From Candidatus Omnitrophota bacterium (GTDB taxonomy: Bacteria; Omnitrophota; Gorgyraeia; Zapsychrales; JBAZNR01), in contig JBAZNR010000002.1 in assembly GCA_041649175.1 (NCBI GenBank), forward strand, positions 47,149-111,148: a stretch of 64,000 nucleotides of DNA. Direction: 5' to 3'. The position numbers were made by a program, and so were the translations under genes. The notes under the pieces are model-generated. The model made no database searches and was not told where the DNA came from. It saw nothing but the letters and a program-made list of their open reading frames with translations. Positions 6,584 through 27,944 of the stretch are shown one piece after another; within the stretch, counting starts at the first letter, position 1, and every line of letters starts with the position of its first letter.

Positions 6584-8378
6584 GGGAAGTTTGCTTCATC
6601 AGATCTGCCGTTGCCGCATTTTCTTTTAAATGGGCGATGAGCGCATCAGCGCCGATGCGTCGATGGAAGGCGCCGAGTGTTTCACCGGGCTTAGCAGTTG
6701 TCTTGTAGAATTTAAAGAGCGTATTTAAAAGGGCCGCAACTTTTTCCCTCGAAATAGAACGCAGATACATTGTTGTTCCATCACCTGACATAAGCGGTGT
6801 TCCTTGAAAACGTCCGTCTTCGCTGGCAAAAAGTTTTAATTGATAGCGGTCCACGCCGGAACCGATCAAACCGATCGTTTTTGTGGCGGGACGAAAACAT
6901 TGCCGCTCGCATCCGGTGATCCCGATCGATTCTGCCAGATCACCCCAGCCCAAAGTTTCTAATTCATCAATAAGAAATGGTTCGAATTTTTCCGAGTCGG
7001 TATAAGTCAATCGGCACGTATCGCGTCCGACGCAAGCGCCGGAATGCAATCGAAGCGCGGAATAGGCTTTCCCATTTCTTTTTCCAAAACCATAGCTTGC
7101 TAGATCATTTTCAAAATCCGCTTTAGACTTTTCGGGAATATTGACAAACAGCACATCTTGATTGGGCGTGATCATGAGTTCTATTGGATATTTGTTCATC
7201 ACGCTTCGGATCATGGTTTTTAGTTTTCCGTTGGGGCTATGATCGGTTACGCGTCCGTTTTCAATAAACGCACCAAAAGCCCATAATCCGTTTGAGGGTT
7301 GTTTGGTCCATCCAAAATGTAAATGTCTTGCGCCGTAATCCAAGGAAAGGTCTGGCTTTTCAAGCGGAAAACCGACTTTCATGGAAACCTGTTCGCGATA
7401 CCAATCGGTTCCCATTTTTTTGATCACATATTTCAGGCGCGCCCAAAAACGGTTTTGCCGGTCACCAAATTCTGCGTGAACTTTGACAATGGCGTCTAAA
7501 ACGGGCATTAATTGCTCTTCGCTGACCTGGCACAGCGGTCGCCCTAGGGAGGCCATGCTGGGTTTTCCGTTGCGTTCACCTTGGCCGCCGCCGGCATAAA
7601 TTTGGAATTTTGCAACTTTACCATTTTCAATGATGGGCGCGACTCCGACGTCATTGGTCAAGAATTCGGTGCAATTATCGGGAATTAATTTCTTCGTTTT
7701 TTCATCGCGGTGAACGGCGGAAAACGCGATCTTAAATTTTCTATTTAGCAAATTGGGCCCATAAGAAAATGATTCATCCGGCTGGCGAACATATTTGGGG
7801 TCGATCGCGAATATTTCAATGAACGGTGCTAGGGGAAGTTGAAAATAAAGCGCGACTTTTTTGGCCCAGGCATTGGCGTTAAAAATATCCGAGTAGCACG
7901 ATAAAGGGCAGGCCATAACATTGCGCGTATTATCGCCACAGCCGTTTAGCGTATTGAATCCTGATTCGGCAATGCGTTTTACGATCTCAAGGATGGCCGG
8001 TTTTTTGACCCAATGGAATTGGATATTCTGACGATTGGTGAATCGCAGGGATGTATGGCCGTCGCTATCGGCGGTGAACTTTTCTGAAAGTTCATCTAAG
8101 ATCTGCCATTGCTTTCGATTGATCGGCCCGCCGCCGGGAATGCTGACACGAATAAGGTACATCCAGTCTTTTTCATTTCCCGTTTTGGCGCGGTTGAATT
8201 CCAGGTAAAATCCGTAGGATTTGGCGAGTTGCTCAGATTCCCAAATAATGTCGGGCTTATCGTCGCGCAGATCTTGGTAGAGAGTGCCGCGCAATCCCTT
8301 CGAATTGAGTTTATTAAGCTCTTCTTTGGAGAATTGTTCTTGCGGAGTTTTAAAATTAGGATTGAATTCTTTTTTCAT
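6561..8378 (-). CDS. ferredoxin-type nitrite/sulfite reductase hemoprotein (siroheme-[4Fe-4S])
   Basis: 605 aa. Siroheme-cluster cysteine motifs C-x5-C (CVGRDTC) and C-x3-C (CERQC). Duplicated NIR_SIR ferredoxin-like fold. Confidence 0.85.
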   Translation of the reverse strand: MKKEFNPNFKTPQEQFSKEELNKLNSKGLRGTLYQDLRDDKPDIIWESEQLAKSYGFYLEFNRAKTGNEKDWMYLIRVSIPGGGPINRKQWQILDELSEKFTADSDGHTSLRFTNRQNIQFHWVKKPAILEIVKRIAESGFNTLNGCGDNTRNVMACPLSCYSDIFNANAWAKKVALYFQLPLAPFIEIFAIDPKYVRQPDESFSYGPNLLNRKFKIAFSAVHRDEKTKKLIPDNCTEFLTNDVGVAPIIENGKVAKFQIYAGGGQGERNGKPSMASLGRPLCQVSEEQLMPVLDAIVKVHAEFGDRQNRFWARLKYVIKKMGTDWYREQVSMKVGFPLEKPDLSLDYGARHLHFGWTKQPSNGLWAFGAFIENGRVTDHSPNGKLKTMIRSVMNKYPIELMITPNQDVLFVNIPEKSKADFENDLASYGFGKRNGKAYSALRLHSGACVGRDTCRLTYTDSEKFEPFLIDELETLGWGDLAESIGITGCERQCFRPATKTIGLIGSGVDRYQLKLFASEDGRFQGTPLMSGDGTTMYLRSISREKVAALLNTLFKFYKTTAKPGETLGAFHRRIGADALIAHLKENAATADLMKQTSPTDCVMD

Positions 8379-8488: not shown

Positions 8489-9565
8489 GTGTCTGCTACC
8501 CAAAATAATTATGTTGGACGATTTTATAAAGAAGTTGAAAACGGACGGATCCTCTGTGATCTGTGTCCAAGGAATTGTGTCTTGTCCGACGGTCAACGTG
8601 GGTTTTGCTTTGTTCGTCAGAACATAAACGGGCAAATGATCCTGACGACATACGGGCGCAGCAGCGGTTTTTGCATTGACCCCATTGAAAAGAAACCGCT
8701 GAATCACTTCTTTCCGGGGACAAGTATCTTTTCTTTTGGGACGGCCGGATGCAATTTGGGATGTAAATTCTGCCAAAATTGGGATATTAGCAAATCGAAG
8801 GAATTTGAACGATTATCTGAAGAAGCAACGCCGGAAAGAATTGCTCAAACAGCAAAAAAGTTAGATTGCCGTAGCGTTGCGTTCACCTACAATGATCCGG
8901 TCATTTTTGCCGAATACGCGATGGATACGGCGGATGCCTGTCGGGCTTTAGGGATCTATGCGGTTGCTAAAACTGCAGGGTACATTACCGATGAAGCTCG
9001 TCCGGAATTCTTTAAGCATATGGATGCGGCCAATGTTGACCTAAAAGCTTTTACTGAAAAATTCTATCGGAATTTAACTCTTTCCGGGCTAAGGCCCGTT
9101 CTCGACACGCTCACTTTTCTAAAAGAAAAAACAAAAGTTTGGCTGGAGATCACGAATTTGATCATTCCCGGTGAAAATGATTCGCCGGAAGAATTTCTTG
9201 AAATGTGCAAGTGGATCGTTAAAAATCTTGGGGCGGATGTTCCTGTGCATTTTACGGCGTTCCATCCTGATTTTAAGATGAACGATCATCCGGCGACGTC
9301 GGCGAGTACATTGCGTAAAGCGCGCGAGATCGCTTTGGCGCAGGGAATACATTTTGTTTACACCGGGAATGTCAGTGATGTTAAAACACAAAGCACGTAT
9401 TGCCACGGATGCGGAAAACTCCTCATTGAACGTAATTGGTACGAATTAGGCGCGTATCATATTAAAGGCGGAAAATGCCGGTATTGTCAAACAGTTTGCC
9501 CCGGATATTTTGAAGATAGCGCCGGCCGTTGGGGTTCAAAACGTGTGCCGGTAAGTATGAACTAA
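8489..9565 (+). CDS. AmmeMemoRadiSam-system radical SAM enzyme (PflA-like activase family)
   Basis: 358 aa, GTG start. N-terminal CDLCPRNCVLSDGQRGFCFVRQ plus CNLGCKFCQN (Cx3Cx2C) and C-terminal CHGCG/CRYCQTVC. Confidence 0.8.
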   Translation: MSATQNNYVGRFYKEVENGRILCDLCPRNCVLSDGQRGFCFVRQNINGQMILTTYGRSSGFCIDPIEKKPLNHFFPGTSIFSFGTAGCNLGCKFCQNWDISKSKEFERLSEEATPERIAQTAKKLDCRSVAFTYNDPVIFAEYAMDTADACRALGIYAVAKTAGYITDEARPEFFKHMDAANVDLKAFTEKFYRNLTLSGLRPVLDTLTFLKEKTKVWLEITNLIIPGENDSPEEFLEMCKWIVKNLGADVPVHFTAFHPDFKMNDHPATSASTLRKAREIALAQGIHFVYTGNVSDVKTQSTYCHGCGKLLIERNWYELGAYHIKGGKCRYCQTVCPGYFEDSAGRWGSKRVPVSMN

Positions 9566-18501: not shown

Positions 18502-19077
18502 ATGAAAAATATTTTTTTAAGAACAACTGGGTTGCTTTTGACGATCATTTTTATGTTTTCATTAATTATCATTTCAAGTGCCTTGGCGGAACCTTTAGGG
18601 TATGTTGCCTATTGGTATGGGAAAGTCAATCAGCATAAGATGATTAATGGAGCCTGGGAAACGGATCCCGATGGTGTCTCTGGAGCGGATATTTATCCCG
18701 ACCTGTATTGTCAAAAGTGGTTCCCGGATTCCCTTGGTGTAAGAGATTTAGGGCCGCAGCTCATTGAAGGATGGAAAAACCAAGGCAATTCCGGAAATTA
18801 TGCGGGTCAAGGCGTTGTTTATGAATGCACCACGCAAGCCGAAGCTAAAATTACAACGCCGGTTGTTGCCTGGGGAACTGGTTTTCCGACCTGGAAACGT
18901 CCCGGAGAACCGACAAATCCCTGCGACCTTGAACAACAAATGTTAGTTCAGGAAAAGCCTTGGAATGGGCCGCATTGCGAGAATGGCGTCATTGTGTCGC
19001 AGCCTAAGAATTCTGACGAGCCTGTGTTTATACCGCGCGCGTTAGATGGCTCTTATAAAGGCTCTTACGATCAATGA
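18502..19077 (+). CDS. hypothetical secreted Cys-containing protein
   Basis: 191 aa with an N-terminal signal/TM segment. No recognisable catalytic motif. Good RBS GGAGGA upstream. Confidence 0.45.
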   Translation: MKNIFLRTTGLLLTIIFMFSLIIISSALAEPLGYVAYWYGKVNQHKMINGAWETDPDGVSGADIYPDLYCQKWFPDSLGVRDLGPQLIEGWKNQGNSGNYAGQGVVYECTTQAEAKITTPVVAWGTGFPTWKRPGEPTNPCDLEQQMLVQEKPWNGPHCENGVIVSQPKNSDEPVFIPRALDGSYKGSYDQ

Positions 19078-19580
19078 TCTTAAAGAAGCACAGTAAGCGC
19101 ATTGTCGGATTTGCGCCCATTGCGGATAAAAATTCCAAAGTGCTTATTTTAGGCTCCATGCCGGGCGTTAAAGCACTTCAAGTGCGAGAGTATTACGGAA
19201 ATCCGCAAAATCATTTTTGGAAAGTAATGACAGCGCTTTTAGGCGCCAAAGCAAATTTAAGTTACGCGGATAAAAAGAAGTTGCTTGTTAAAAACAAAAT
19301 AGCGCTTTGGGATGTCGTTTTTTCTTGTCAAAGGGCAGGTTCTGCCGATTCTGCGATGCGAAATATCCGCCCCAACAATTTTAGAAATTTTTTCAAGAAA
19401 TACGCTAATATAAAGATGATCTGTTTTAACGGCCAAACGGCCGCCAAGATTTTTCAGCGGTTTAATTCGGATATTGATTTACCCAGCATTATTTTGCCGT
19501 CCACCAGCCCGGCGCATACGATCGGATTTAAAAGAAAGTTAAAAGGGTGGGGGAAAATATTGAACGGGCGCAGTTTTTAG
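19074..19580 (+). CDS. DNA-deoxyinosine (hypoxanthine) glycosylase, UDG-superfamily
   Basis: 168 aa. LILGSMPG and YYGNPQNHFW motifs are characteristic of the mismatch-specific and hypoxanthine glycosylase branch of UDGs. Confidence 0.65.
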   Translation: MILKKHSKRIVGFAPIADKNSKVLILGSMPGVKALQVREYYGNPQNHFWKVMTALLGAKANLSYADKKKLLVKNKIALWDVVFSCQRAGSADSAMRNIRPNNFRNFFKKYANIKMICFNGQTAAKIFQRFNSDIDLPSIILPSTSPAHTIGFKRKLKGWGKILNGRSF

Positions 19581-19584
19581 TAAC

Positions 19585-19617
19585 CCTATACAATTTCCTA
19601 TACAATACCTATACGAT
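19585..19617. repeat. three direct repeats CCTATACAAT / CCTATACAAT / CCTATACGAT at roughly 11-12 bp spacing, immediately upstream of fic
   Basis: Exact 10-mers at 19585-19594 and 19597-19606, plus a one-mismatch copy at 19608-19617. One helical turn apart, which is iteron/operator-like. Confidence 0.6.
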
Positions 19618-19633
19618 ATGCTATTCTTAGCTC

Positions 19634-20644
19634 ATGTTTAAACCACATTATCGCACCACATCTTTTTTGATCAGTATTCTTGAGAATATGGCCGCGCAAA
19701 CGGCACTTATTAAGAATTCCGGCATTAAGTTTCCGGCGCGTGTTTCTCTTGAAAAAGATGCGGTCAATCGCAGTGTTCATTCCTCAACGTCGATCGAAGG
19801 TAACAACTTATCTCTTAAGCAAGTAGCCGCTTTAAGCGACAGAAAAGACATCGATGCTGATCAAAAACAAAAACAGGAAGTTCAAAATTGTTTAGCGGCC
19901 TTGCGCTGGGTTTTAGCGCACAAGCACAGTGCTTTTACGGAAAGTCAGCTTTTGACACTTCATAAGATGATGACCAAGGGACTTTTGCCTGCTGCTGCGA
20001 TCGGGCGATTTAGAAAAACTCAAAATTATGTGGTGAACGCTAAAAGAATCGTTATTTTTACTCCTCCGCCCCCCCAACAGGTAGCTCGTAAAGTAAAAGA
20101 ACTTTTTCTATGGCTTAAAAATACTCCCCTGGAGCATAGCGTTATTCATAGCGCTATTTTTCATCATGAATTTGTTACCATTCATCCCTTTACTGATGGC
20201 AATGGCCGGGTTGCGCGAGCAGCCAGCCAGTGGATTCTGCTCAAAAAGAAATTTGATCCCGTCTATACCTTAGGACTGGATGACTATTTTGCGCATGACC
20301 GAAACAAATATTATGCGATGATCCAACAGGCGCGCGATTTGGATAATGACTATACACATTGGATCGAGTATGTTGCTCAAGGCCTTTTAGTGTCGATTGA
20401 AAATATTGCCGGACGTATAAAGGAAATGAAGCGCGTCTTAAAAGGAAAAAGGATCGAATTAACGCCCAAGCAGGAAGAGATCTTAAATCTCTTAAATGAG
20501 CATGGCGCGATCGGTTCAGCGCAAATTTCCAAGGCAATGGATATCAATCGTGCGCGGGTTAATCAGCTGGTGGCGCCGCTTGTTAAAGCGGGAATTGTAA
20601 CCCAAGAAGGTAAAGCACGCGGCGTTAAATATGCTTTGAAGTAA
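19634..20644 (+). CDS. fic: Fic-family protein (class II, N-terminal inhibitory helix) with C-terminal winged-helix domain
   Basis: 336 aa. Canonical Fic motif HPFTDGNGRVARA. Inhibitory motif STSIEGN ([ST]xxxE[GN]) near the N-terminus. C-terminal wHTH-like region. Confidence 0.85.
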   Translation: MFKPHYRTTSFLISILENMAAQTALIKNSGIKFPARVSLEKDAVNRSVHSSTSIEGNNLSLKQVAALSDRKDIDADQKQKQEVQNCLAALRWVLAHKHSAFTESQLLTLHKMMTKGLLPAAAIGRFRKTQNYVVNAKRIVIFTPPPPQQVARKVKELFLWLKNTPLEHSVIHSAIFHHEFVTIHPFTDGNGRVARAASQWILLKKKFDPVYTLGLDDYFAHDRNKYYAMIQQARDLDNDYTHWIEYVAQGLLVSIENIAGRIKEMKRVLKGKRIELTPKQEEILNLLNEHGAIGSAQISKAMDINRARVNQLVAPLVKAGIVTQEGKARGVKYALK

Positions 20645-20647
20645 TTT

Positions 20648-20695
20648 GTGCAAAAATTGTCAGGAGCGGTAGAATAGAAGAAACAATTTTTGCAC
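20648..20695 (+). terminator. 13-bp stem / 22-nt loop hairpin directly after the fic stop (possible terminator or RNA structure)
   Basis: GTGCAAAAATTGT at 20648-20660 pairs with ACAATTTTTGCAC at 20683-20695. There is no clear U-tract. Confidence 0.3.
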
Positions 20696-20725
20696 CAGGC
20701 CCAGCAGTTCAATGAATTTAAAATG

Positions 20726-20856
20726 AAAATCCTAAATCCTAATGTCGAAATACTAAACAAATTCCAAATTCGAATTTTAAAATACAAAACTGTTTTGATA
20801 TTTGGATTTAGAAATTAGGGTTTGTTTAGGGTTTAGGATTTAGTGTTTAGGGTTTA
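20726..20856. repeat. about 130-bp AT-rich imperfect palindrome built of degenerate TTTAGGG/TTTAGGA heptamers (left arm CCTAAAT-type, right arm TTTAGGG-type), centred near 20791
   Basis: Left arm AAATCCTAAATCCTAA.... Right arm ...TTAGGGTTTGTTTAGGGTTTAGGATTTAGTGTTTAGGGTTT. Centre CAAAAC-T-GTTTTG. Sits at the left boundary of the low-GC R-M island and contains a perfect TATAAT at 20855-20860. Confidence 0.6.
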
Positions 20857-20934
20857 TAATAAATTTAACAGTTTGCGTCTTTGGTCTTGAATTGCGAAAG
20901 AGGGAGTGGGGAAGGTTTTGAAAGTGATCAGCAT

Positions 20935-21414
20935 ATGAAGAAAATAAATTCTATTCAAGCTGTCGCAATCCTGGCCACGCTTATAAGCGCAGCGACACTT
21001 TTTCGCCGGCAATTTGCGATCATGTTTGTACTTATTAATTTTGATACTTTCGTGAAAGAAAGCGGAAAACTCATTACAATAACAGGCTTGATCATTGATT
21101 TTCTACCTGTTTTGATTATTGTCGGAAGTTTGGGAGTTTTTCTGAGAAGACCGGGAAGTCTGCTCATCCTCAAATGGTGCTTTATTATCTCTTTAATCCT
21201 CAATTTATGGATTGGAATTATTCAATGCATCAATTTCTTTATTTTGCCTTCTATGGAAAATTATATTCCACCCGAAGGTTCCGTGGTTAGAAAAGCTAAC
21301 TTCGTCGCTCCGTTTATCTGGAGCGTTGTTTATGGATCGTTTCTTTATGTTGTCACTCGCCCCAAAGCCAAATTCTTTGGCATCCGAGCTCCAGAAAAAG
21401 ATGCGAGGGATTGA
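20935..21414 (+). CDS. hypothetical integral membrane protein (about 4 TM), first gene of the low-GC island operon
   Basis: ATG at 20935 (MKKINSIQAVAIL...). The track ORF extends to a TTG at 20881. No known motif. Confidence 0.5.
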   Translation: MKKINSIQAVAILATLISAATLFRRQFAIMFVLINFDTFVKESGKLITITGLIIDFLPVLIIVGSLGVFLRRPGSLLILKWCFIISLILNLWIGIIQCINFFILPSMENYIPPEGSVVRKANFVAPFIWSVVYGSFLYVVTRPKAKFFGIRAPEKDARD

Positions 21415-21428
21415 AGGAGCATTAAATA

Positions 21429-22067
21429 ATGCGTATAATTTTTGCTATACATGGAATTCAAAGCGTCCAAAAGGATAATTGGGTTAATAAATTTGTTAAC
21501 TATATTAACGAAGATGAACGATTTGATGGTGATATTAAAATACCGCATACTTATGGATATCTCCGGGCGCTTAATTCAGTAAACATGAAAACTAAATTTG
21601 ATCATGTTAAAAGTGTCATGCGAGAGTTGAGATCTCTTACGACTCAATATCCCGATGCTGAATTAAACATTGTTGGACACAGTTATGGGACAGAATTGAG
21701 TTATCAGGCGATCAAAAGAAGCGAAGAAGATGGCAAGTCGCCAATCAAAGTTAATAAGTTGATTTTAGTAGCCAGTATCGTTTCTGCTCATAGAGAAATT
21801 CCGTATGATGATACTCTGCGTGCTGGAAAGTTGAATGAGCTACATTGTTATTGCAGCTATAATGATGAAGTTTGTAGATATAATCCTTTTGGTCATTCTG
21901 GCTGCTTTGGTTTTTTGCGGAGCGCCTATGACATGAAATGTTATCAAAAACCTTTTAAAGATCTAGAAATTTATAATCATCAACAAAAAACTTTAGAACA
22001 TGGAGATTATTTTGAAGGAACTAAATTTTACAAAGAATGGCTTGATGTTATCGATCTAAGAAAGTAA
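21429..22067 (+). CDS. minimal alpha/beta-hydrolase, lipase/esterase-like (GHSxG serine hydrolase)
   Basis: 212 aa. N-terminal IIFAIHGIQS (oxyanion region) and nucleophile elbow IVGHSYGT. Candidate Asp at YNDEV and His at FGHSG. Size and layout resemble minimal lipases. Confidence 0.55.
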   Translation: MRIIFAIHGIQSVQKDNWVNKFVNYINEDERFDGDIKIPHTYGYLRALNSVNMKTKFDHVKSVMRELRSLTTQYPDAELNIVGHSYGTELSYQAIKRSEEDGKSPIKVNKLILVASIVSAHREIPYDDTLRAGKLNELHCYCSYNDEVCRYNPFGHSGCFGFLRSAYDMKCYQKPFKDLEIYNHQQKTLEHGDYFEGTKFYKEWLDVIDLRK

Positions 22068-22076
22068 CTTAATGTT

Positions 22077-23804
22077 ATGGTAAGAAAAATAAGCGGAAAA
22101 GAATATGAAGCTTGGTCAAAGGAGGATTTGATCAAGGAAATCGTGAAGATAAAAAGCACGACGTATGGGCTTGTTTGGCATCGCGATTTGCCAGAAGAAA
22201 AAATTGATATTTTAGTCAATCCGGATGCACGTACGCCAAGCGAGATGTTTCCCAACGAAATGGCGGGTAAGCCATTTCCTGTCTTGAAAGAAGTTAAGAA
22301 TAAAGCAATTGAATCTGATAAATCAAAACTCGTAAATCTTTTGATTGAGGGGGATAACTACCATTCTCTAGCTGTCCTTAATTTCACGCACCGCGAAGCG
22401 GTCGATTTGATCTACATTGATCCGCCTTACAATACCGGCAATAATGATTTCATTTACAATGACAAACTTGTTGATAAAGAGGATAGTTTTCGACATAGCA
22501 AATGGCTTTCGTTTATGGAGAAGCGTCTCAAGCTGGCAAAAAATCTTTTGAAACAAAGCGGGGTCATTTTTTTAAGTATTGACGATAATGAGCTGGCGCC
22601 ATTACGAATGCTTTGTGATGAAATATTCTCTTCAGAGAATTTCTTGGCAACGATAGTTTTGAAGAACAAAGCGGGTGCTGGAGCAAAACCAAAAGCATTA
22701 ATCGAGGTGCACGAATATATTTTGATGTACGCAAAAAGTTCCAGTTTCATTAAATCAATAAGCGTTCCTTATATTGAATCAAACAACAAGTTATTTACAA
22801 AAAAAGATAAGCATTTTTCGATCAGGGGACCTTACGGGACTTGGGCATTGGGGACAACTAGCATGGCTGATAGGCCAAATCTACGATACCCGATTAACTA
22901 TAATGGAGAAGAAATTTGGCCCGAAAAGCAATGGCTTTGGTCCAAAGAACGCGTAGAACAAGCAATGAAGAACGATGAACTTGTGTTCAATAAAATGAAA
23001 AACGGAAAATGGTCGGTTAGATTTAAACAATATTTAAAGGATAAAGATGGAATCTTGAGGAATTCAACCCCAACAACTCTTTTTGAGGGACCATATACAC
23101 ATGAAGGAACAAAAGAATTAGACGACATTCTAGGGAACCGTTTATTTATGTTTCCTAAGCCTGTTAACTTAATTAAGAAAATTCTAAAATTTAATTATAA
23201 TGGGGAGAAAAACAAAAATCACGTCATTCTTGACTTTTTTGCTGGTTCAGGGACAACAGGTCATGCAGTTTTAGAGCTAAACAAAGAAGACGGCGGTTGC
23301 AGATCCTTTATTTTATGTACGAATAACGGGGATCAAAAATCAGAGCATAAAATCGCTTCAGATATTTGTTATCCTCGGGTTAAAAAAGTAATAAGTGGAT
23401 ACAAAAATCAGAAAGAAGAGAAAGTCGATGGACTTGGCGGAAATCTCAAATATTACGCAACCGATTTCGTAGAAGCTGAGCCAACAGATAAAAATAAGCG
23501 AAAGCTAGTAAAAGAATCAGCGGATATGCTGTGCATCTTAGAAAATGCTTTTGAGTTTGTCCAAGGAACGGACGAATTCAAGATTTTTAAGAATACGGAT
23601 AAGTACATTGGGATTATTTTCTATGAGGAGGCAATAGAGGATTATAAAAAGATAATCAAAAAGATTGATGGGCGTTTTAACACTTACGTTTTCTCGATGG
23701 GTGATGATCCGCATGTGAGGAAATTTGCTGATGTTAAGAGTAAGGTGTCGCTTTGTGCAATTCCCGAAGTGATCCTAAAGGTATATCGGGAGATTTTTAA
23801 ATAA
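22077..23804 (+). CDS. mod: Type III restriction-modification methyltransferase (Mod), beta-class N6A/N4C MTase
   Basis: 575 aa. Motif IV IYIDPPYNTG precedes motif I LDFFAGSGTTGHA. Adjacent to the res gene. Confidence 0.85.
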   Translation: MVRKISGKEYEAWSKEDLIKEIVKIKSTTYGLVWHRDLPEEKIDILVNPDARTPSEMFPNEMAGKPFPVLKEVKNKAIESDKSKLVNLLIEGDNYHSLAVLNFTHREAVDLIYIDPPYNTGNNDFIYNDKLVDKEDSFRHSKWLSFMEKRLKLAKNLLKQSGVIFLSIDDNELAPLRMLCDEIFSSENFLATIVLKNKAGAGAKPKALIEVHEYILMYAKSSSFIKSISVPYIESNNKLFTKKDKHFSIRGPYGTWALGTTSMADRPNLRYPINYNGEEIWPEKQWLWSKERVEQAMKNDELVFNKMKNGKWSVRFKQYLKDKDGILRNSTPTTLFEGPYTHEGTKELDDILGNRLFMFPKPVNLIKKILKFNYNGEKNKNHVILDFFAGSGTTGHAVLELNKEDGGCRSFILCTNNGDQKSEHKIASDICYPRVKKVISGYKNQKEEKVDGLGGNLKYYATDFVEAEPTDKNKRKLVKESADMLCILENAFEFVQGTDEFKIFKNTDKYIGIIFYEEAIEDYKKIIKKIDGRFNTYVFSMGDDPHVRKFADVKSKVSLCAIPEVILKVYREIFK

Positions 23805-23805
23805 T

Positions 23806-26043
23806 ATGATATTCGAATTTAAAGATTACCAAGAAAATGCTGTTGTAAAGTTGAAGCGAGAAATCAATGAGCTTTTGGACTCGGATGAGAGCAAAATTTG
23901 TATTTTTAAAGCGCCTACAGGATCTGGTAAAACGCTGATGATGGCAGAATTCTTAAAGCGCTTAGTCGACTCTCGCGCAGATGGTAAGAAATTCTCGTTT
24001 GCATGGATTGCTGTAAATAAATTGCATGACCAGAGCCGAAATAATCTTCGGAAATATTACGATGAAAACGGTGTAGGTATAAAATGCTCGTATTTTGAAG
24101 ATTTGGATGATCGTAAAATTGGCGAAAACGAGATTTTATTTCTGAACTGGGCAAGTATCAATAAAAAAGACAATTTGTATGTTCGCGCAAATGAACGAGA
24201 TAACAATTTGACAAGTATTGTCGCTCGAACGAAAGATGAGGGCAGAATAATTTTTCTCATCATTGATGAAAGCCATCACACAGCGAATAGTGAAAAATCA
24301 AAGGAACTGATACAAGATATTGGACCCAAAATTACGATTGAAGTTTCAGCTACTCCACAACTAAATAACGCAAGCAGAATTGTTGAAGTGGAACTTAAAG
24401 ACGTAAAAGATGAAGAGATGATCAAGAAAGAAATTGTCATTAACCCTGGTTTTGAACATTACATCATTGATAAGAAGAAAAGTGACAAAACTGCAGATGA
24501 GCTTGTGCTAGAGACTGCGTTAAAAAAGCAGATTGAATTACAGAAGAAGCTTGAGATTGAAGGATCGGGTATTAATCCACTTTTGCTCATTCAATTACCG
24601 GATGCAGTGCAGGGTGTATCGGATAAAAAAGACGAGATTGTTACTTTACTCAAGAAATTTGGCTATACAACAGAAAACGGTCGACTCGCGATTTATCTTT
24701 CTGATAAAGACAACAAGGTAAACCTTACGAATATAGAGAAGAATGAGAACGAGGTTGAGGTGATGATATTCAAGCAAGCGATTGCGCTTGGCTGGGATTG
24801 TCCGCGCGCTTCAATTTTGGTTTTGTTTAGACAATGGCGCGAGGAAAACATTACTTTCTCTATCCAAACGCTTGGACGCATTATGCGTATGCCAGAGCAG
24901 AAACATTACGCCGATCAAGATTTGAACGTTGGCTATGTGTTCACGAGTTTACAGGACATCAATGTCGCCAAAGATTTATCGCGCGATTACATTACAACCT
25001 TTACTGGGTTTAGAATTAAGAATTACAAAAATCTTGATTTACTGGCCTATCACTCAAAGCGTTTCCGTGAGGAAACTCGCCTTTCCTCTGATTTTACGCC
25101 TCTTTTCGTCGAGGCAGGAAAGAAGCTGAAACTCAAAGAAAAGTTTTCATTCAAACATAGTATTTTAAAAACAAGTTTAATCGCGAGTGGTCGTGTTGTT
25201 GACAGTGATAAGGAAACAAAGGGCATAGATAGAAAAGGAACGCTTGATATTCCCAAGAATGAAGTTGAGTTGCAAAATGCGTTTGATATGTTTGCGCGAA
25301 ACAATCTCGCACCATTCGCGCCAGAGCAACGATCAATTGGTCGTATAAAAAGTTCAATCTATTCACTTTTTGAAGCGTCGCGAAACGAAGACGAATGGCC
25401 AAAGATTCAAGCCGCTGTTCTTGCGGAGGAAAACCGCCAAATTATGATTGATACCATCAATTTTGCAAAAGAAATGTATCAAGAAGAAGTTGGAAAAGGT
25501 AAAAATGAGCTAGTGAAGAATGAGGAGCCCTGGAATGTTCCGAAAGTAATAAACTACACTCTTTCTTTTGCAAAGAAAGATTATAAAAAGTCGGTGATGC
25601 TTCCATATTACACAAGGAAGTCCGGTGGAGGCACAGCGAATATGTTTGAAGAAGATAGTAACCTTGAAGTTGATTTCATAGAATATTTGGAAAAATCAAA
25701 AGAAGTGGAGTGGTGGTTTAAAAATGGGAAAAGTGATGCGACGTATTTCGCCGTACCGCATATGGAGCATGGGGCTGAAAAGCCATTTTATGTTGATTTT
25801 ATTGTAATGCAAAAAGATGGTCGCATTGGTTTATTTGATACAAAAGGCGGGCTGACTGCAGAAACGGCAAAATCACGCGCCGAGGGATTGGCAAAATATA
25901 TCACTGAACAAAATAAAAACGGTAAAAAATTATATGGCGGAATTGTGCTGAAAGAAAGGAATAGCTGGCGCTATCGTGATGGTTTGAAATACGAATACAA
26001 TCCAAGCAATCTCAAAGATTGGAAATTTTTGGATTTGAATTGA
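23806..26043 (+). CDS. res: Type III restriction enzyme Res subunit (SF2 helicase + endonuclease)
   Basis: 745 aa. Walker A APTGSGKT near the N-terminus. DEAH-like IIDESHHT. SF2 motif VI region. C-terminal PD-(D/E)xK-like YVDFIVMQK. Starts 2 nt after mod. Confidence 0.8.
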   Translation: MIFEFKDYQENAVVKLKREINELLDSDESKICIFKAPTGSGKTLMMAEFLKRLVDSRADGKKFSFAWIAVNKLHDQSRNNLRKYYDENGVGIKCSYFEDLDDRKIGENEILFLNWASINKKDNLYVRANERDNNLTSIVARTKDEGRIIFLIIDESHHTANSEKSKELIQDIGPKITIEVSATPQLNNASRIVEVELKDVKDEEMIKKEIVINPGFEHYIIDKKKSDKTADELVLETALKKQIELQKKLEIEGSGINPLLLIQLPDAVQGVSDKKDEIVTLLKKFGYTTENGRLAIYLSDKDNKVNLTNIEKNENEVEVMIFKQAIALGWDCPRASILVLFRQWREENITFSIQTLGRIMRMPEQKHYADQDLNVGYVFTSLQDINVAKDLSRDYITTFTGFRIKNYKNLDLLAYHSKRFREETRLSSDFTPLFVEAGKKLKLKEKFSFKHSILKTSLIASGRVVDSDKETKGIDRKGTLDIPKNEVELQNAFDMFARNNLAPFAPEQRSIGRIKSSIYSLFEASRNEDEWPKIQAAVLAEENRQIMIDTINFAKEMYQEEVGKGKNELVKNEEPWNVPKVINYTLSFAKKDYKKSVMLPYYTRKSGGGTANMFEEDSNLEVDFIEYLEKSKEVEWWFKNGKSDATYFAVPHMEHGAEKPFYVDFIVMQKDGRIGLFDTKGGLTAETAKSRAEGLAKYITEQNKNGKKLYGGIVLKERNSWRYRDGLKYEYNPSNLKDWKFLDLN

Positions 26044-26047
26044 AAAT

Positions 26048-27022
26048 ATGACAACGATTAGAAAAACTGAAGGTGGGATAGAATACTTATTTGGATTGCT
26101 AAAAGAAAAAGCAAAAACTGTTACTCGTGCTGCTTTTTGGAAAATCCCACATAAAAACTCACAACAAGAGGATATTTGCCTAAAAATTGGCAGATATAAC
26201 AAGAATGGCTTCGCGCCTGAAACACTTGAAAATACAAATCCAAAAAGTGAACTTACTTTGGATAATGAGGAATTTCAGAAATTACTTGAGTTTTTATCGG
26301 ATAACTACGAACCCTTTAAAAAGGGAGTAAAAGAGTATATCCCAATTGATGAGAAATTTGACCATCAAAAGGTTAAACATTTAAGGGCAATTTTTGCGGA
26401 TCCAGACAAACAGAAAGTTTTGGATTTTATTGCAAAGAACAATATCTTGCCAGAAGACATGATTGCGGGATTGCAACATCAGGCAAGAATGGGGGCGGTT
26501 AGAGAATTTGAAAATATGCTTGACCAAAATTTGCTTGAGCAGAAATGGCAGGAATGGCTAAAGCGAAATGACTGGGTTCTTGGAAGTGAATTTGTGAAGA
26601 TTTTAGAAGAACGAGAAATAGATACCGCAAATATCGCAGATTATTTAATGCAAGCGTATGATGGTTTTCTTGATATTGTTGAAATTAAGCGGCCCGAAGG
26701 GAACTTGCAATTTTGGGCCAATGGGCAGGATCATGGGAACTATGTGCCATCAGCCGACTTAACAAAAGCTGTTACACAAGCGACGAAATATATTTATGAA
26801 GTGGAACGTGAAGCAAACAGTGTGAAATTCTTAGAACGAGTCGCTAATGTAAAAACAATAAAACCGCGTTGTATATTGATTTTCGGTAGATCAAGCGACT
26901 GGAACAATGAGCAAAGAGAAGCATTTCGAATTTTAAATTCTAGCTATCATAATTTAACGATAATGACCTATGACCATGTTTTAAGTCGAGCCAAGCGGAT
27001 TTTAGAAATTGATGAAAAATAA
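26048..27022 (+). CDS. candidate Shedu-like (DUF4263) PD-(D/E)xK nuclease, last gene of the R-M operon
   Basis: 324 aa. Putative nuclease motif D..DIVEIK followed by a conserved C-terminal ILIFGRS....TYD region. Starts 5 nt after res. The assignment to DUF4263 is from memory of the family, not from a search. Confidence 0.4.
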   Translation: MTTIRKTEGGIEYLFGLLKEKAKTVTRAAFWKIPHKNSQQEDICLKIGRYNKNGFAPETLENTNPKSELTLDNEEFQKLLEFLSDNYEPFKKGVKEYIPIDEKFDHQKVKHLRAIFADPDKQKVLDFIAKNNILPEDMIAGLQHQARMGAVREFENMLDQNLLEQKWQEWLKRNDWVLGSEFVKILEEREIDTANIADYLMQAYDGFLDIVEIKRPEGNLQFWANGQDHGNYVPSADLTKAVTQATKYIYEVEREANSVKFLERVANVKTIKPRCILIFGRSSDWNNEQREAFRILNSSYHNLTIMTYDHVLSRAKRILEIDEK

Positions 27023-27134
27023 TTTAAACCGTTTCTAAATAATTATTGTTGTTAAAAAAATAGCGTGCCAGGCACAAAGCGGGGACAGGGTTGCCCCTAC
27101 TGATTTGAGAATAATCAACGAGGAAGGATATCCA

Positions 27135-27944
27135 ATGAAAAGCGGCAAAGATAAAGACAAGCAGGAAAAGAAACTTGGCAAAAAACTTTACGAACGCGAA
27201 CTTAAAAAACTACAAATAGAGCTGGTAAAACTCCAAGAGTGGATCAAGCGCAAAAACTTAAGAGCGATCGTTCTCTTTGAGGGCCGCGATGCCGCCGGCA
27301 AGGGCGGGGTTATCAAGCGTATTACTCAGCGTACCAGCCCGCGCATTTGCCGGGTGGTGGCTTTGAGCGTTCCGACAGAAAAAGAAAAAACCCAGTGGTA
27401 TTTTCAGCGTTATATCGCCCATCTTCCGTCGGCCGGAGAAGTGGTTTTATTCGACCGCACCTGGTATAATCGCGCCGGGGTAGAACGGGTGATGGGGTTT
27501 TGTACCGATGAGGAATATAAGGAATTTTTACGCTCGGTTCCGGAATTTGAACGGATGCTCATCCGCTCCGGCATTATCCTCATCAAATATTGGTTTTCGG
27601 TAAGCGACGAGGTTCAGGAAAAACGGTTTCAAAAGAGGCTGCAAGATCCCCGACGGCGCTGGAAGCTAAGCCCCATGGATTTGGACGCCCGCACCAGATG
27701 GGTGGAATATTCCAAAGCCAAGGATACCATGTTTGAGTGCGCCGACACAAAAGAGTCGCCCTGGTATGTGGTCAATGCCGACAATAAACGCCGCGCACGG
27801 CGTAAGTGGATTCATCATCTTTTAAGCAAGATGTCCTACAAAGACCTAACACCTAAACCCATCAAGCTGCCGCCGCGCCAAAAAGATAAGGGCTATGTGC
27901 GCCCACCGCTTACGAAACAACATTTTGTGCCGGAAGTGTATTGA
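27135..27944 (+). CDS. polyphosphate kinase 2 (PPK2, polyphosphate:nucleotide phosphotransferase)
   Basis: PPK2 P-loop VLFEGRDAAGKGG and lid/Walker B region. RBS GAGGAAGGA before ATG 27135. The track ORF starts at a TTG at 27105. Higher GC than the preceding operon. Confidence 0.88.
   Translation: MKSGKDKDKQEKKLGKKLYERELKKLQIELVKLQEWIKRKNLRAIVLFEGRDAAGKGGVIKRITQRTSPRICRVVALSVPTEKEKTQWYFQRYIAHLPSAGEVVLFDRTWYNRAGVERVMGFCTDEEYKEFLRSVPEFERMLIRSGIILIKYWFSVSDEVQEKRFQKRLQDPRRRWKLSPMDLDARTRWVEYSKAKDTMFECADTKESPWYVVNADNKRRARRKWIHHLLSKMSYKDLTPKPIKLPPRQKDKGYVRPPLTKQHFVPEVY

Follow-up and report, generated by a model that had tools for sequence, protein, structure and literature searches.

The DNA analysed here is a 64,000-nt stretch (the window) of a Candidatus Omnitrophota metagenome-assembled genome. 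Within it, a co-directional array of five genes on the + strand encodes a 159-aa membrane protein, a 212-aa alpha/beta hydrolase, the methyltransferase (Mod) and restriction/helicase (Res) subunits of a Type III restriction-modification (R-M) system, and the Shedu nuclease SduA, with gaps of 14, 9, 1 and 4 nt between them (Table 1). The first two proteins match WC676_05335 and WC676_05340 at 100%. An earlier reading made from the sequence alone (the initial annotation) took these two for a membrane protein and lipase-like hydrolase pair heading the R-M genes. They do head the array, on the same strand and with only 9 nt between the hydrolase gene and Mod. The conserved unit, however, appears to be the hydrolase gene alone, which can reasonably be put forward as a candidate new immune effector.

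A conserved minimal alpha/beta hydrolase

All four motifs singled out by the initial annotation (IIFAIHGIQS, GHSYG, YNDEV and FGHSG) are found in the 212-aa protein. In an alignment of 60 homologues, the oxyanion residues H8 and G9 (codons at 21450-21455), H84, S85 (21681-21683), G87, D146 (21864-21866) and H191 (21999-22001) are each identical in 60 of 60 sequences. The oxyanion HG, the GHSYG elbow and the Asp of YNDEV proposed at the outset are therefore all present, and the GHSYG serine, on whose conservation the original proposal had been made to depend, is invariant. The proposed catalytic histidine fared differently. H156 of FGHSG is replaced by Arg in 7 of the 60 homologues, and we dropped it in favor of H191, which lies in the sequence LEHGDYF. 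The catalytic triad is predicted to be S85-D146-H191, because H191 is invariant and occupies the canonical position past the last beta strand of the structural model, while H156 varies.

That model, built with AlphaFold2 (AF2) from the 60-sequence alignment, has a predicted local distance difference test (pLDDT) score of 95.3 and a predicted template modelling score of 0.93, and shows a minimal alpha/beta-hydrolase topology without a lid. The order of strands is canonical: the HG pair comes after the strand of residues 2-7, S85 after 78-84, D146 after 135-142 and H191 after 181-185. Since residues 2-7 already form the first core strand, the protein has no signal peptide. A Foldseek comparison with the PDB returned 108 chains at E<=1e-3; among the 50 best listed, almost every one is an alpha/beta hydrolase. 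The top matches have template modelling scores of 0.55-0.6, a probability of 1.0 and sequence identities of 10-17%. They include yeast YDR428C (1vkh), the rumen enzyme Lip_vut1 (6nkc), Bacillus subtilis LipA (1i6w), monoglyceride lipases and Tle3. These structural matches are generic, and a search for a solved close relative by sequence gave none, with a best E-value of 0.14 for the family profile.

In Pfam, Lipase_3 gives a partial match (1.1e-5, 25.7 bits against a cut-off of 22) that covers model positions 3-76 of 140 only, the matches to Lipase_2, DUF900 and cutinase are weak, and most homologues carry no precomputed Pfam match. The AF2 fold and the Foldseek matches, along with these weak Pfam matches, point to the minimal lipase- or esterase-like size and layout suggested initially. 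No known defence model fits the hydrolase, as neither PADLOC (2.0) nor NCBIfam gave a match. The ratio of non-synonymous to synonymous substitution rates (dN/dS) is 0.035-0.059 in the two pairs with unsaturated dS, which indicates strong purifying selection and points to a functional enzyme.

A cluster of His and Cys residues, H139-C140-Y141-C142...C149 (~21843-21875), surrounds the predicted catalytic Asp. It is specific to the Omnitrophota clade, where it hardly varies, and receiver-fused relatives keep one Cys only. A regulatory metal or redox site is one possibility.

Distribution, neighbours and wider relatives

The hydrolase is encoded by a rare accessory gene and not by a core gene. Close homologues (52-81% identity, ~210 aa) form 65 clusters at 90% identity among 5.8 billion proteins, and the few whose source is named all come from Omnitrophota. 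A copy of the gene is present in 17 of 185,579 species-representative genomes, 14 of the 17 being Omnitrophota or mislabelled relatives. Rarity and variable context led us to reject a housekeeping enzyme. Searches of 2.9 million viral contigs and 50,697 phage records gave no match and plasmids gave just two weak ones, and the idea of a phage or plasmid gene was dropped as well.

We examined ~32 distinct loci, window included (locus and protein numbers beginning with L and P are our own). DNA similarity between the window and every other locus, by blastn, is confined to 21410-22092, which comprises the ribosome binding site and open reading frame (ORF) of the hydrolase gene, and the alignments start at 21410-21429. 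Clustering of neighbours found no constant neighbour gene across these loci. The hydrolase is also more similar between genomes than the flanking housekeeping genes are (70% against 64% for V-ATPase subunit A in one comparison, 89% against 67-69% in another), and in two related genomes it sits on opposite sides of one conserved block. Because DNA similarity stops at the ORF borders, no neighbour is constant and the hydrolase is better conserved than its flanks, the pattern looks like that of a single-gene module exchanged horizontally among variable islands.

Some copies show signs of decay. In L027 (10001-10830) the gene is frameshifted into ORFs of 142 and 136 aa, and the protein search returned truncated homologues (P0037, P0056, P0062, P0065). 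A search of 300 nt on either side of 16 copies for direct and inverted repeats led us to reject an integron cassette or att site, as only L006 shows a repeat there (~27 nt). In L006 this direct repeat, AATTCCGGGGACA(C)TAAC(T/C)TAATTTA, brackets the hydrolase gene at 7943-7970 and 8640-8667. After it comes a second copy, 51 aa long, of the 5' end of the Macro-NUDIX gene located 2 kb downstream. The core motif of the repeat occurs inverted just past the hydrolase in L010 (8673-8683, - strand), and likewise across L010-L012. The repeats of L006 and L010-L012 look like an insertion or recombination footprint that the other copies lack.

Defence and mobile-element genes recur in the neighbourhoods. 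N6_N4 DNA methyltransferases lie within ~8 kb in 8 of the ~32 loci, often with Res. RadC-JAB genes are found in 6 loci, DUF1016 nucleases in 6, and patatin with or without SMODS (CBASS-type) in 5. Further neighbours include Type I R-M, a C5 methyltransferase with Vsr, ThsB/TIR (Thoeris), Shedu, AbiEii/AbiGi, SLFN_AlbA_2, DUF4917, Tle1-like hydrolases, and ATPases resembling the coupling proteins of type IV secretion systems (T4SS). In at least 13 of the 17 closely examined loci the gene directly adjoins unrelated defence systems. Homologues are, by a count of loci, recurrently flanked by known defence genes in unrelated contexts. Across the ~32 loci, the neighbourhood analysis that the initial annotation had called for places homologues in defence or mobile islands and not among core housekeeping genes.

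Individual loci add detail. T4SS coupling-protein-like ATPases lie a few genes from the hydrolase in L043 (2873-10298), L045 and L025 (69-1925), and in L043 and L045 the hydrolase also adjoins RadC and a Tle1-like (DUF2235) hydrolase. The context of these three loci suggests carriage on integrative or conjugative elements. In L004 (7162-9376) the hydrolase gene is preceded by a 280-aa gene that has three transmembrane segments and a faint C92-peptidase match, and the stop of this gene shares 4 nt with the hydrolase start. A 245-aa gene starts at the hydrolase stop in the same locus; its N-terminal part is a duplicate of the one encoded by the DUF1016 nuclease gene next to it.

An exhaustive profile search widened the family to 1596 representatives at E<=1e-3, 15 of them at E<=1e-30. 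Distant relatives carry the domain fused to RHS repeats, an M23 peptidase, a WD40/propeller, NB-ARC plus TPR, or a receiver domain, and many of the larger ones have a hydrophobic segment directly after the hydrolase domain. Proteins of ~390 aa, in which the domain begins at ~residue 150, almost all end in a transmembrane helix, and the two of this group that were scanned, P0108 and P0111, begin with a receiver domain. Alignment of the Omnitrophota family with the receiver-hydrolase-transmembrane protein P0108 by hhalign gave a probability of 99.1%, an E-value of 7.8e-19 and 30% identity over 194 columns, and matched all catalytic motifs (HG, HSxGT, CSYxD and GHGxYF).

P0108 leads on to a known class of immune system. 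Its relatives in Yersinia and Vibrio are 33% and 30% identical to it, are linked to the Omnitrophota family by way of P0108, and are encoded in three-gene operons. The first two proteins of these operons match PADLOC PDC-M60A (~1100 aa) and PDC-M60B (a stand-alone receiver), and the full set is PDC-M60A/B/C. The Yersinia operon (L031, 2208-7176) lies beside a phage-type integrase and the Vibrio operon (L032, 2355-7167) beside an AlpA/HTH_17 gene; in both, the third protein consists of a receiver, an alpha/beta hydrolase and a C-terminal transmembrane helix. Detocs is built in this way, from the kinase DtcA, the buffer receiver DtcB and the receiver-effector DtcC, and Detocs with a hydrolase-type effector protects E. 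coli against diverse phages. From this matching architecture alone we infer that PDC-M60 is Detocs; no text linking the two names was found. The window hydrolase domain is homologous to the effector domain of Detocs-like receiver-hydrolase-transmembrane proteins, as judged via P0108 and not via the tested E. cloacae protein.

Two sets of distant homologues stand apart. Homologues from Stahlbacteria and WOR-3 with ~40% identity (L028, 1418-2296; L029, 129-1013; P0069) have an N-terminal transmembrane helix and a Cys-rich C-terminal tail of ~50 aa, and lie in housekeeping-like neighbourhoods. A 34%-identical homologue, L030 (9899-10588; also L063 and L064), is encoded on a 66-kb contig binned as Saccharibacteria. 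This contig is phage-like, with a large putative DNA polymerase, SbcCD-like genes and many small co-oriented ORFs, identities that were read from ORF starts.

Comparison with named systems sets the window hydrolase apart from each of them. Despite the shared effector domain, it is not a member of Detocs. The window protein is a bare domain, with no receiver domain (Pfam finds no Response_reg) and no fused transmembrane helix, and neither a kinase nor a PDC-M60A/B match was found among the six window proteins scanned at 19634-27022. With the minimal lid-less lipases (LipA, Lip_vut1, Lipase_2, Lipase_3 and DUF900) it shares a length of ~180-210 aa, the GxSxG motif, the HG oxyanion pair and the lack of a lid. 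Lipases of the LipA and Lip_vut1 type are secreted enzymes, whereas the window protein has no signal peptide, resides in defence islands and is only distantly similar in sequence. The similarity to type VI secretion system (T6SS) Tle proteins, RHS proteins and STAND proteins is at the level of the superfamily only. All of these are effectors of conflict systems that use the same domain superfamily, and Tle3 is among the structural matches, but the window protein lacks a secretion or delivery domain, an immunity gene and T6SS genes.

Two further kinds of system deserve mention. Rst_Hydrolase-3Tm, from P4 satellites, combines a HAD-like hydrolase with a transmembrane protein and is thought to act by abortive infection (PMC9122126). 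It shares with our locus the two-gene layout of a hydrolase beside a small multi-helix membrane protein. The fold is HAD-like there and alpha/beta here, neither window protein has a PADLOC match, and the transmembrane partner here is not conserved. Protease-activated alpha/beta-hydrolase zymogens are latent death effectors of defence modules whose nearest homology is to lipases and which are cleaved into three fragments (bioRxiv 10.1101/2025.11.14.688446). Compared by description, they too are lipase-like alpha/beta hydrolases. They have a dedicated protease, whereas no peptidase domain was found in the six scanned window proteins, and a peptidase-like neighbour occurs in one homologue locus only, the faint C92-like gene of L004. 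The window hydrolase is best described as a free-standing variant of the defence alpha/beta-hydrolase effector domain, outside the PADLOC 2.0 models.

The membrane protein and the defence island

The gene upstream of the hydrolase is probably real. Its ORF starts at an ATG, with an alternative TTG at 20881. Of 5000 random sequences drawn from a first-order Markov model of the 784 nt of 20645-21428, only 4 contained an ORF of such length (p ~0.001), which makes a chance ORF unlikely. The initial description of a protein of ~160 aa with about four transmembrane helices and no recognisable motif holds up well. The protein has 159 aa, four hydrophobic stretches (~4-24, 43-72, 73-107 and 122-141) and no match in Pfam, NCBIfam or PADLOC. 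Its single-sequence AF2 model shows four helices at a pLDDT of 60, a low confidence that makes it unusable for a fold search. Among 5.8 billion proteins it matches only itself, and tblastn found no match in the 13 searched loci with hydrolase homologues. Judged by these comparisons, the membrane protein is a lineage-specific orphan particular to this genome and probably not a conserved partner of the hydrolase.

Both genes lie in what is evidently an acquired defence island. The GC content is 36-39% across 21-27 kb and 42-49% for most of the remaining window. Third-position GC of the five genes from the membrane-protein ORF through SduA is 0.25-0.38, compared with 0.43-0.56 for the flanking HemN, PPK2 and ABC-F genes; the Fic gene falls in between, at 0.41. 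PPK2 follows SduA, and the SoFic-like Fic gene (Pfam) precedes the membrane-protein gene. The island at 19634-27022 stacks three recognised defence modules: SoFic-like Fic with a winged helix-turn-helix domain, a complete Type III R-M system whose Mod and Res genes are adjacent, and Shedu SduA. The Fic gene, also of a defence type, sits on the left of the island as a neighbour and does not belong to the hydrolase module. No tRNA gene was found in the window, and there was no integrase among the eight proteins scanned at 19074-27944. A promoter and terminator scan of the window stayed at background level.

Two non-coding features mark the left side of the island. The inverted repeat that begins 4 nt past the Fic stop codon has the arms GTGCAAAAATTGT and ACAATTTTTGCAC, and is possibly a terminator or an operator for the winged helix-turn-helix domain of Fic. 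At the left edge of the low-GC block lies an imperfect hairpin with an RNA folding energy of -38.6 kcal/mol (z -4.55), in which the heptad motif occurs 5 times against 0.85 expected. Rfam gave only sub-threshold matches to it, resembling miRNA precursors. The hairpin could be an element like a miniature inverted-repeat transposable element, a recombination scar or a regulatory structure.

Table 1. Genes and sequence features at the left end and within the defence island of the window.
Feature	Position	Strand	Evidence
Fic/DOC protein with winged helix-turn-helix (SoFic-like)	19634..20644	+	Pfam Fic 5.6e-21, HTH_24; PADLOC SoFic 3.1e-54
Perfect 13-nt inverted repeat with 22-nt spacer	20648..20695		Repeat search
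AT-rich imperfect hairpin of ~130 nt with TTTAGGG/AAATCCT-like heptads	20727..20855		Inverted repeats
Orphan four-helix membrane protein, 159 aa	20935..21414	+	ORF call, hydrophobicity, AF2
Shine-Dalgarno sequence AAGGAG for the hydrolase, overlapping the TGA stop of the membrane-protein ORF	21414..21419	+	Sequence
Minimal alpha/beta hydrolase, 212 aa, cytoplasmic	21429..22067	+	Pfam, AF2, Foldseek, conservation, dN/dS
Type III R-M methyltransferase Mod	22077..23804	+	Pfam N6_N4_Mtase 2.6e-35; PADLOC MTase_III 2.2e-91
Type III R-M restriction/helicase subunit Res	23806..26043	+	Pfam ResIII 1.6e-20; PADLOC REase_III 4.3e-20
Shedu nuclease SduA	26048..27022	+	Pfam SduA_C 1.1e-27; PADLOC SduA 2.1e-144

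Possible roles of the hydrolase

The reading that we put forward, and to which we would give an even chance, is that the conserved unit is the hydrolase gene alone and that it encodes a free-standing, sensor-less effector of the esterase or lipase type belonging to defence and mobile islands. The gene would be exchanged among Omnitrophota as a self-contained module that lands in defence islands and in integrative or conjugative elements, and here it would have landed directly before the Type III R-M system and Shedu. The bare domain would be the free-standing form of an effector that elsewhere is joined to modules for sensing or regulation and, very often, carries a membrane anchor. Most likely, the enzyme would hydrolyse an ester bond of a substrate close to the membrane, probably a lipid. 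Such hydrolysis could damage or stop the infected cell, as in abortive infection, or interfere with the invading element.

Several points weigh against a free-standing effector. No PADLOC model matches the hydrolase. A lipase-type enzyme that has no sensor and is apparently unregulated should be toxic if the membranes of the host were its target, yet the loci show no conserved gene for an antitoxin, immunity protein or sensor beside it. The Omnitrophota proteins lack the membrane anchor of their relatives, the distant Stahlbacteria and WOR-3 homologues lie in housekeeping-like contexts, and the 34%-identical homologue sits on a phage-like contig. Location in a defence island is guilt by association. 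R-M genes are the commonest residents of such islands, and adjacency to a methyltransferase may have no functional meaning. The equation of PDC-M60 with Detocs is a match of architecture, and the sequence comparison of the family covers P0108, not the experimentally tested E. cloacae Detocs hydrolase. In a more specific form, which we hold as a tentative and rather doubtful possibility, the bare ~210-aa hydrolase would be a single-gene anti-phage system of Omnitrophota, or a shared cassette acting in trans for an adjacent defence system, which spreads as one gene and would here have recruited a de novo membrane protein as tether or gate.

The initial annotation had likened the two genes to the effector modules of abortive-infection systems. 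The effector-like part of that proposal stands, given a hydrolase found in defence islands with a Detocs-like domain homology, but the pairing with the membrane protein does not: neighbour clustering found no related upstream gene at the ~31 other distinct loci. The two genes are probably not a conserved two-part system, because the membrane protein has no homologue among 5.8 billion proteins or in any homologue locus. A module confined to this genome, in which the membrane protein would act as anchor, gate or sensor and the hydrolase would break down lipids of the membrane to abort infection, is a quite unlikely arrangement. It draws on the 14-nt gap, with the ribosome binding site of the hydrolase overlapping the stop codon of the membrane-protein gene, and on the anchors found in relatives, at the N-terminus in L028, L029 and P0069 and at the C-terminus in the receiver-hydrolase proteins. 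Unrelated multi-helix membrane-protein genes adjoin the hydrolase at L004, L025 and L026, and hydrolase-plus-transmembrane defence systems do exist, for example with a HAD-like hydrolase (PMC9122126). Against this stand the orphan nature of the membrane protein and its absence from all homologue loci, the start of DNA conservation only at the hydrolase ribosome binding site, and a low-confidence model that yields no functional clue. An enrichment of transmembrane neighbours is unconvincing, since such genes adjoin the hydrolase in 4 of 17 close-clade loci and make up 5 of 34 flanking genes, compared with 8.5% of all neighbourhood genes. In this genome alone, the membrane protein could serve to tether the enzyme or keep it in check, for which the 14-nt spacing is the sole support; tight gene spacing alone had misled towards a two-gene system. 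The hydrolase gene could also be an ordinary accessory esterase or lipase with a metabolic, envelope or host-interaction role in variable regions and no part in immunity, which we consider unlikely. Its fold and motifs are generic, it has no PADLOC match, the homologues of Stahlbacteria and WOR-3 have sugar-nucleotide, acyl-CoA and flippase-type genes as neighbours, and at some Omnitrophota loci one flank carries housekeeping genes (RuvABC, Macro-NUDIX, glycosyltransferases). Such an enzyme would fit poorly with a rare gene that has no conserved metabolic neighbour, encodes a protein without a signal peptide, adjoins unrelated defence systems in most of the closely examined loci and is homologous to the effector domain of conflict systems.

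Mobile elements offer another home for the gene. As cargo of an integrative or conjugative element, the hydrolase would serve the element itself, in establishment, anti-defence or competition between elements, together with RadC-like JAB proteins and methyltransferases. RadC-JAB adjoins the hydrolase in L015, L016 and L020 and is nearby in L017, L043 and L045, the T4SS coupling-protein-like ATPases lie upstream in L043/L045 and L025, and IS110, an rve integrase and a TnsA-like gene occur at other loci. Single-gene horizontal transfer and the distant homologue on a phage-like contig would also be expected of cargo. The viral contigs and phage records gave no match, however, and plasmids only the two weak ones. 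In the window and several other loci the methyltransferase comes with the rest of its R-M system, and the remaining neighbours are genuine defence systems of the host. We know of no alpha/beta-hydrolase anti-defence protein, and regard element cargo as decidedly unlikely. A role as an accessory of R-M or methyltransferases, such as a back-up toxin or a regulator coupled to the Type III system, would account for the position at the head of the array. In 6 of the 8 loci with a nearby N6_N4 methyltransferase (window, L013, L015, L016, L020 and L024) the hydrolase comes first, on the same strand, and 0-2 small genes separate it from the methyltransferase gene. In L017 the gene directly after it is Type I HsdM, and in the window Mod follows closely. 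The adjacent methyltransferases are not orthologous, though: the hydrolases of the window and L013 share 80% identity, but their Mod proteins only 31% over 124 aa. A nearby methyltransferase is missing from most loci, L006 and L010 have the hydrolase after the R-M genes, and at other loci Shedu, CBASS-type genes, a helicase or DUF1016 directly adjoins it. We regard a dedicated R-M accessory as highly improbable.

A free-standing effector would join a growing class. Alpha/beta-hydrolase effectors occur in several immune systems, including Detocs, protease-activated modules, Lamassu-type proteins and STAND proteins, and the architecture itself is not surprising. What the hydrolase described here would offer is a clean candidate for experiment: a free-standing, highly conserved and easily modelled 210-aa version of the domain would be a handy, stripped-down enzyme with which to look for the substrate. 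Another question that it poses is how an enzyme without a fused sensor stays harmless. To our knowledge, Omnitrophota have no cultured model and almost no characterised immunity, and the hydrolase adds a candidate defence gene for this group.

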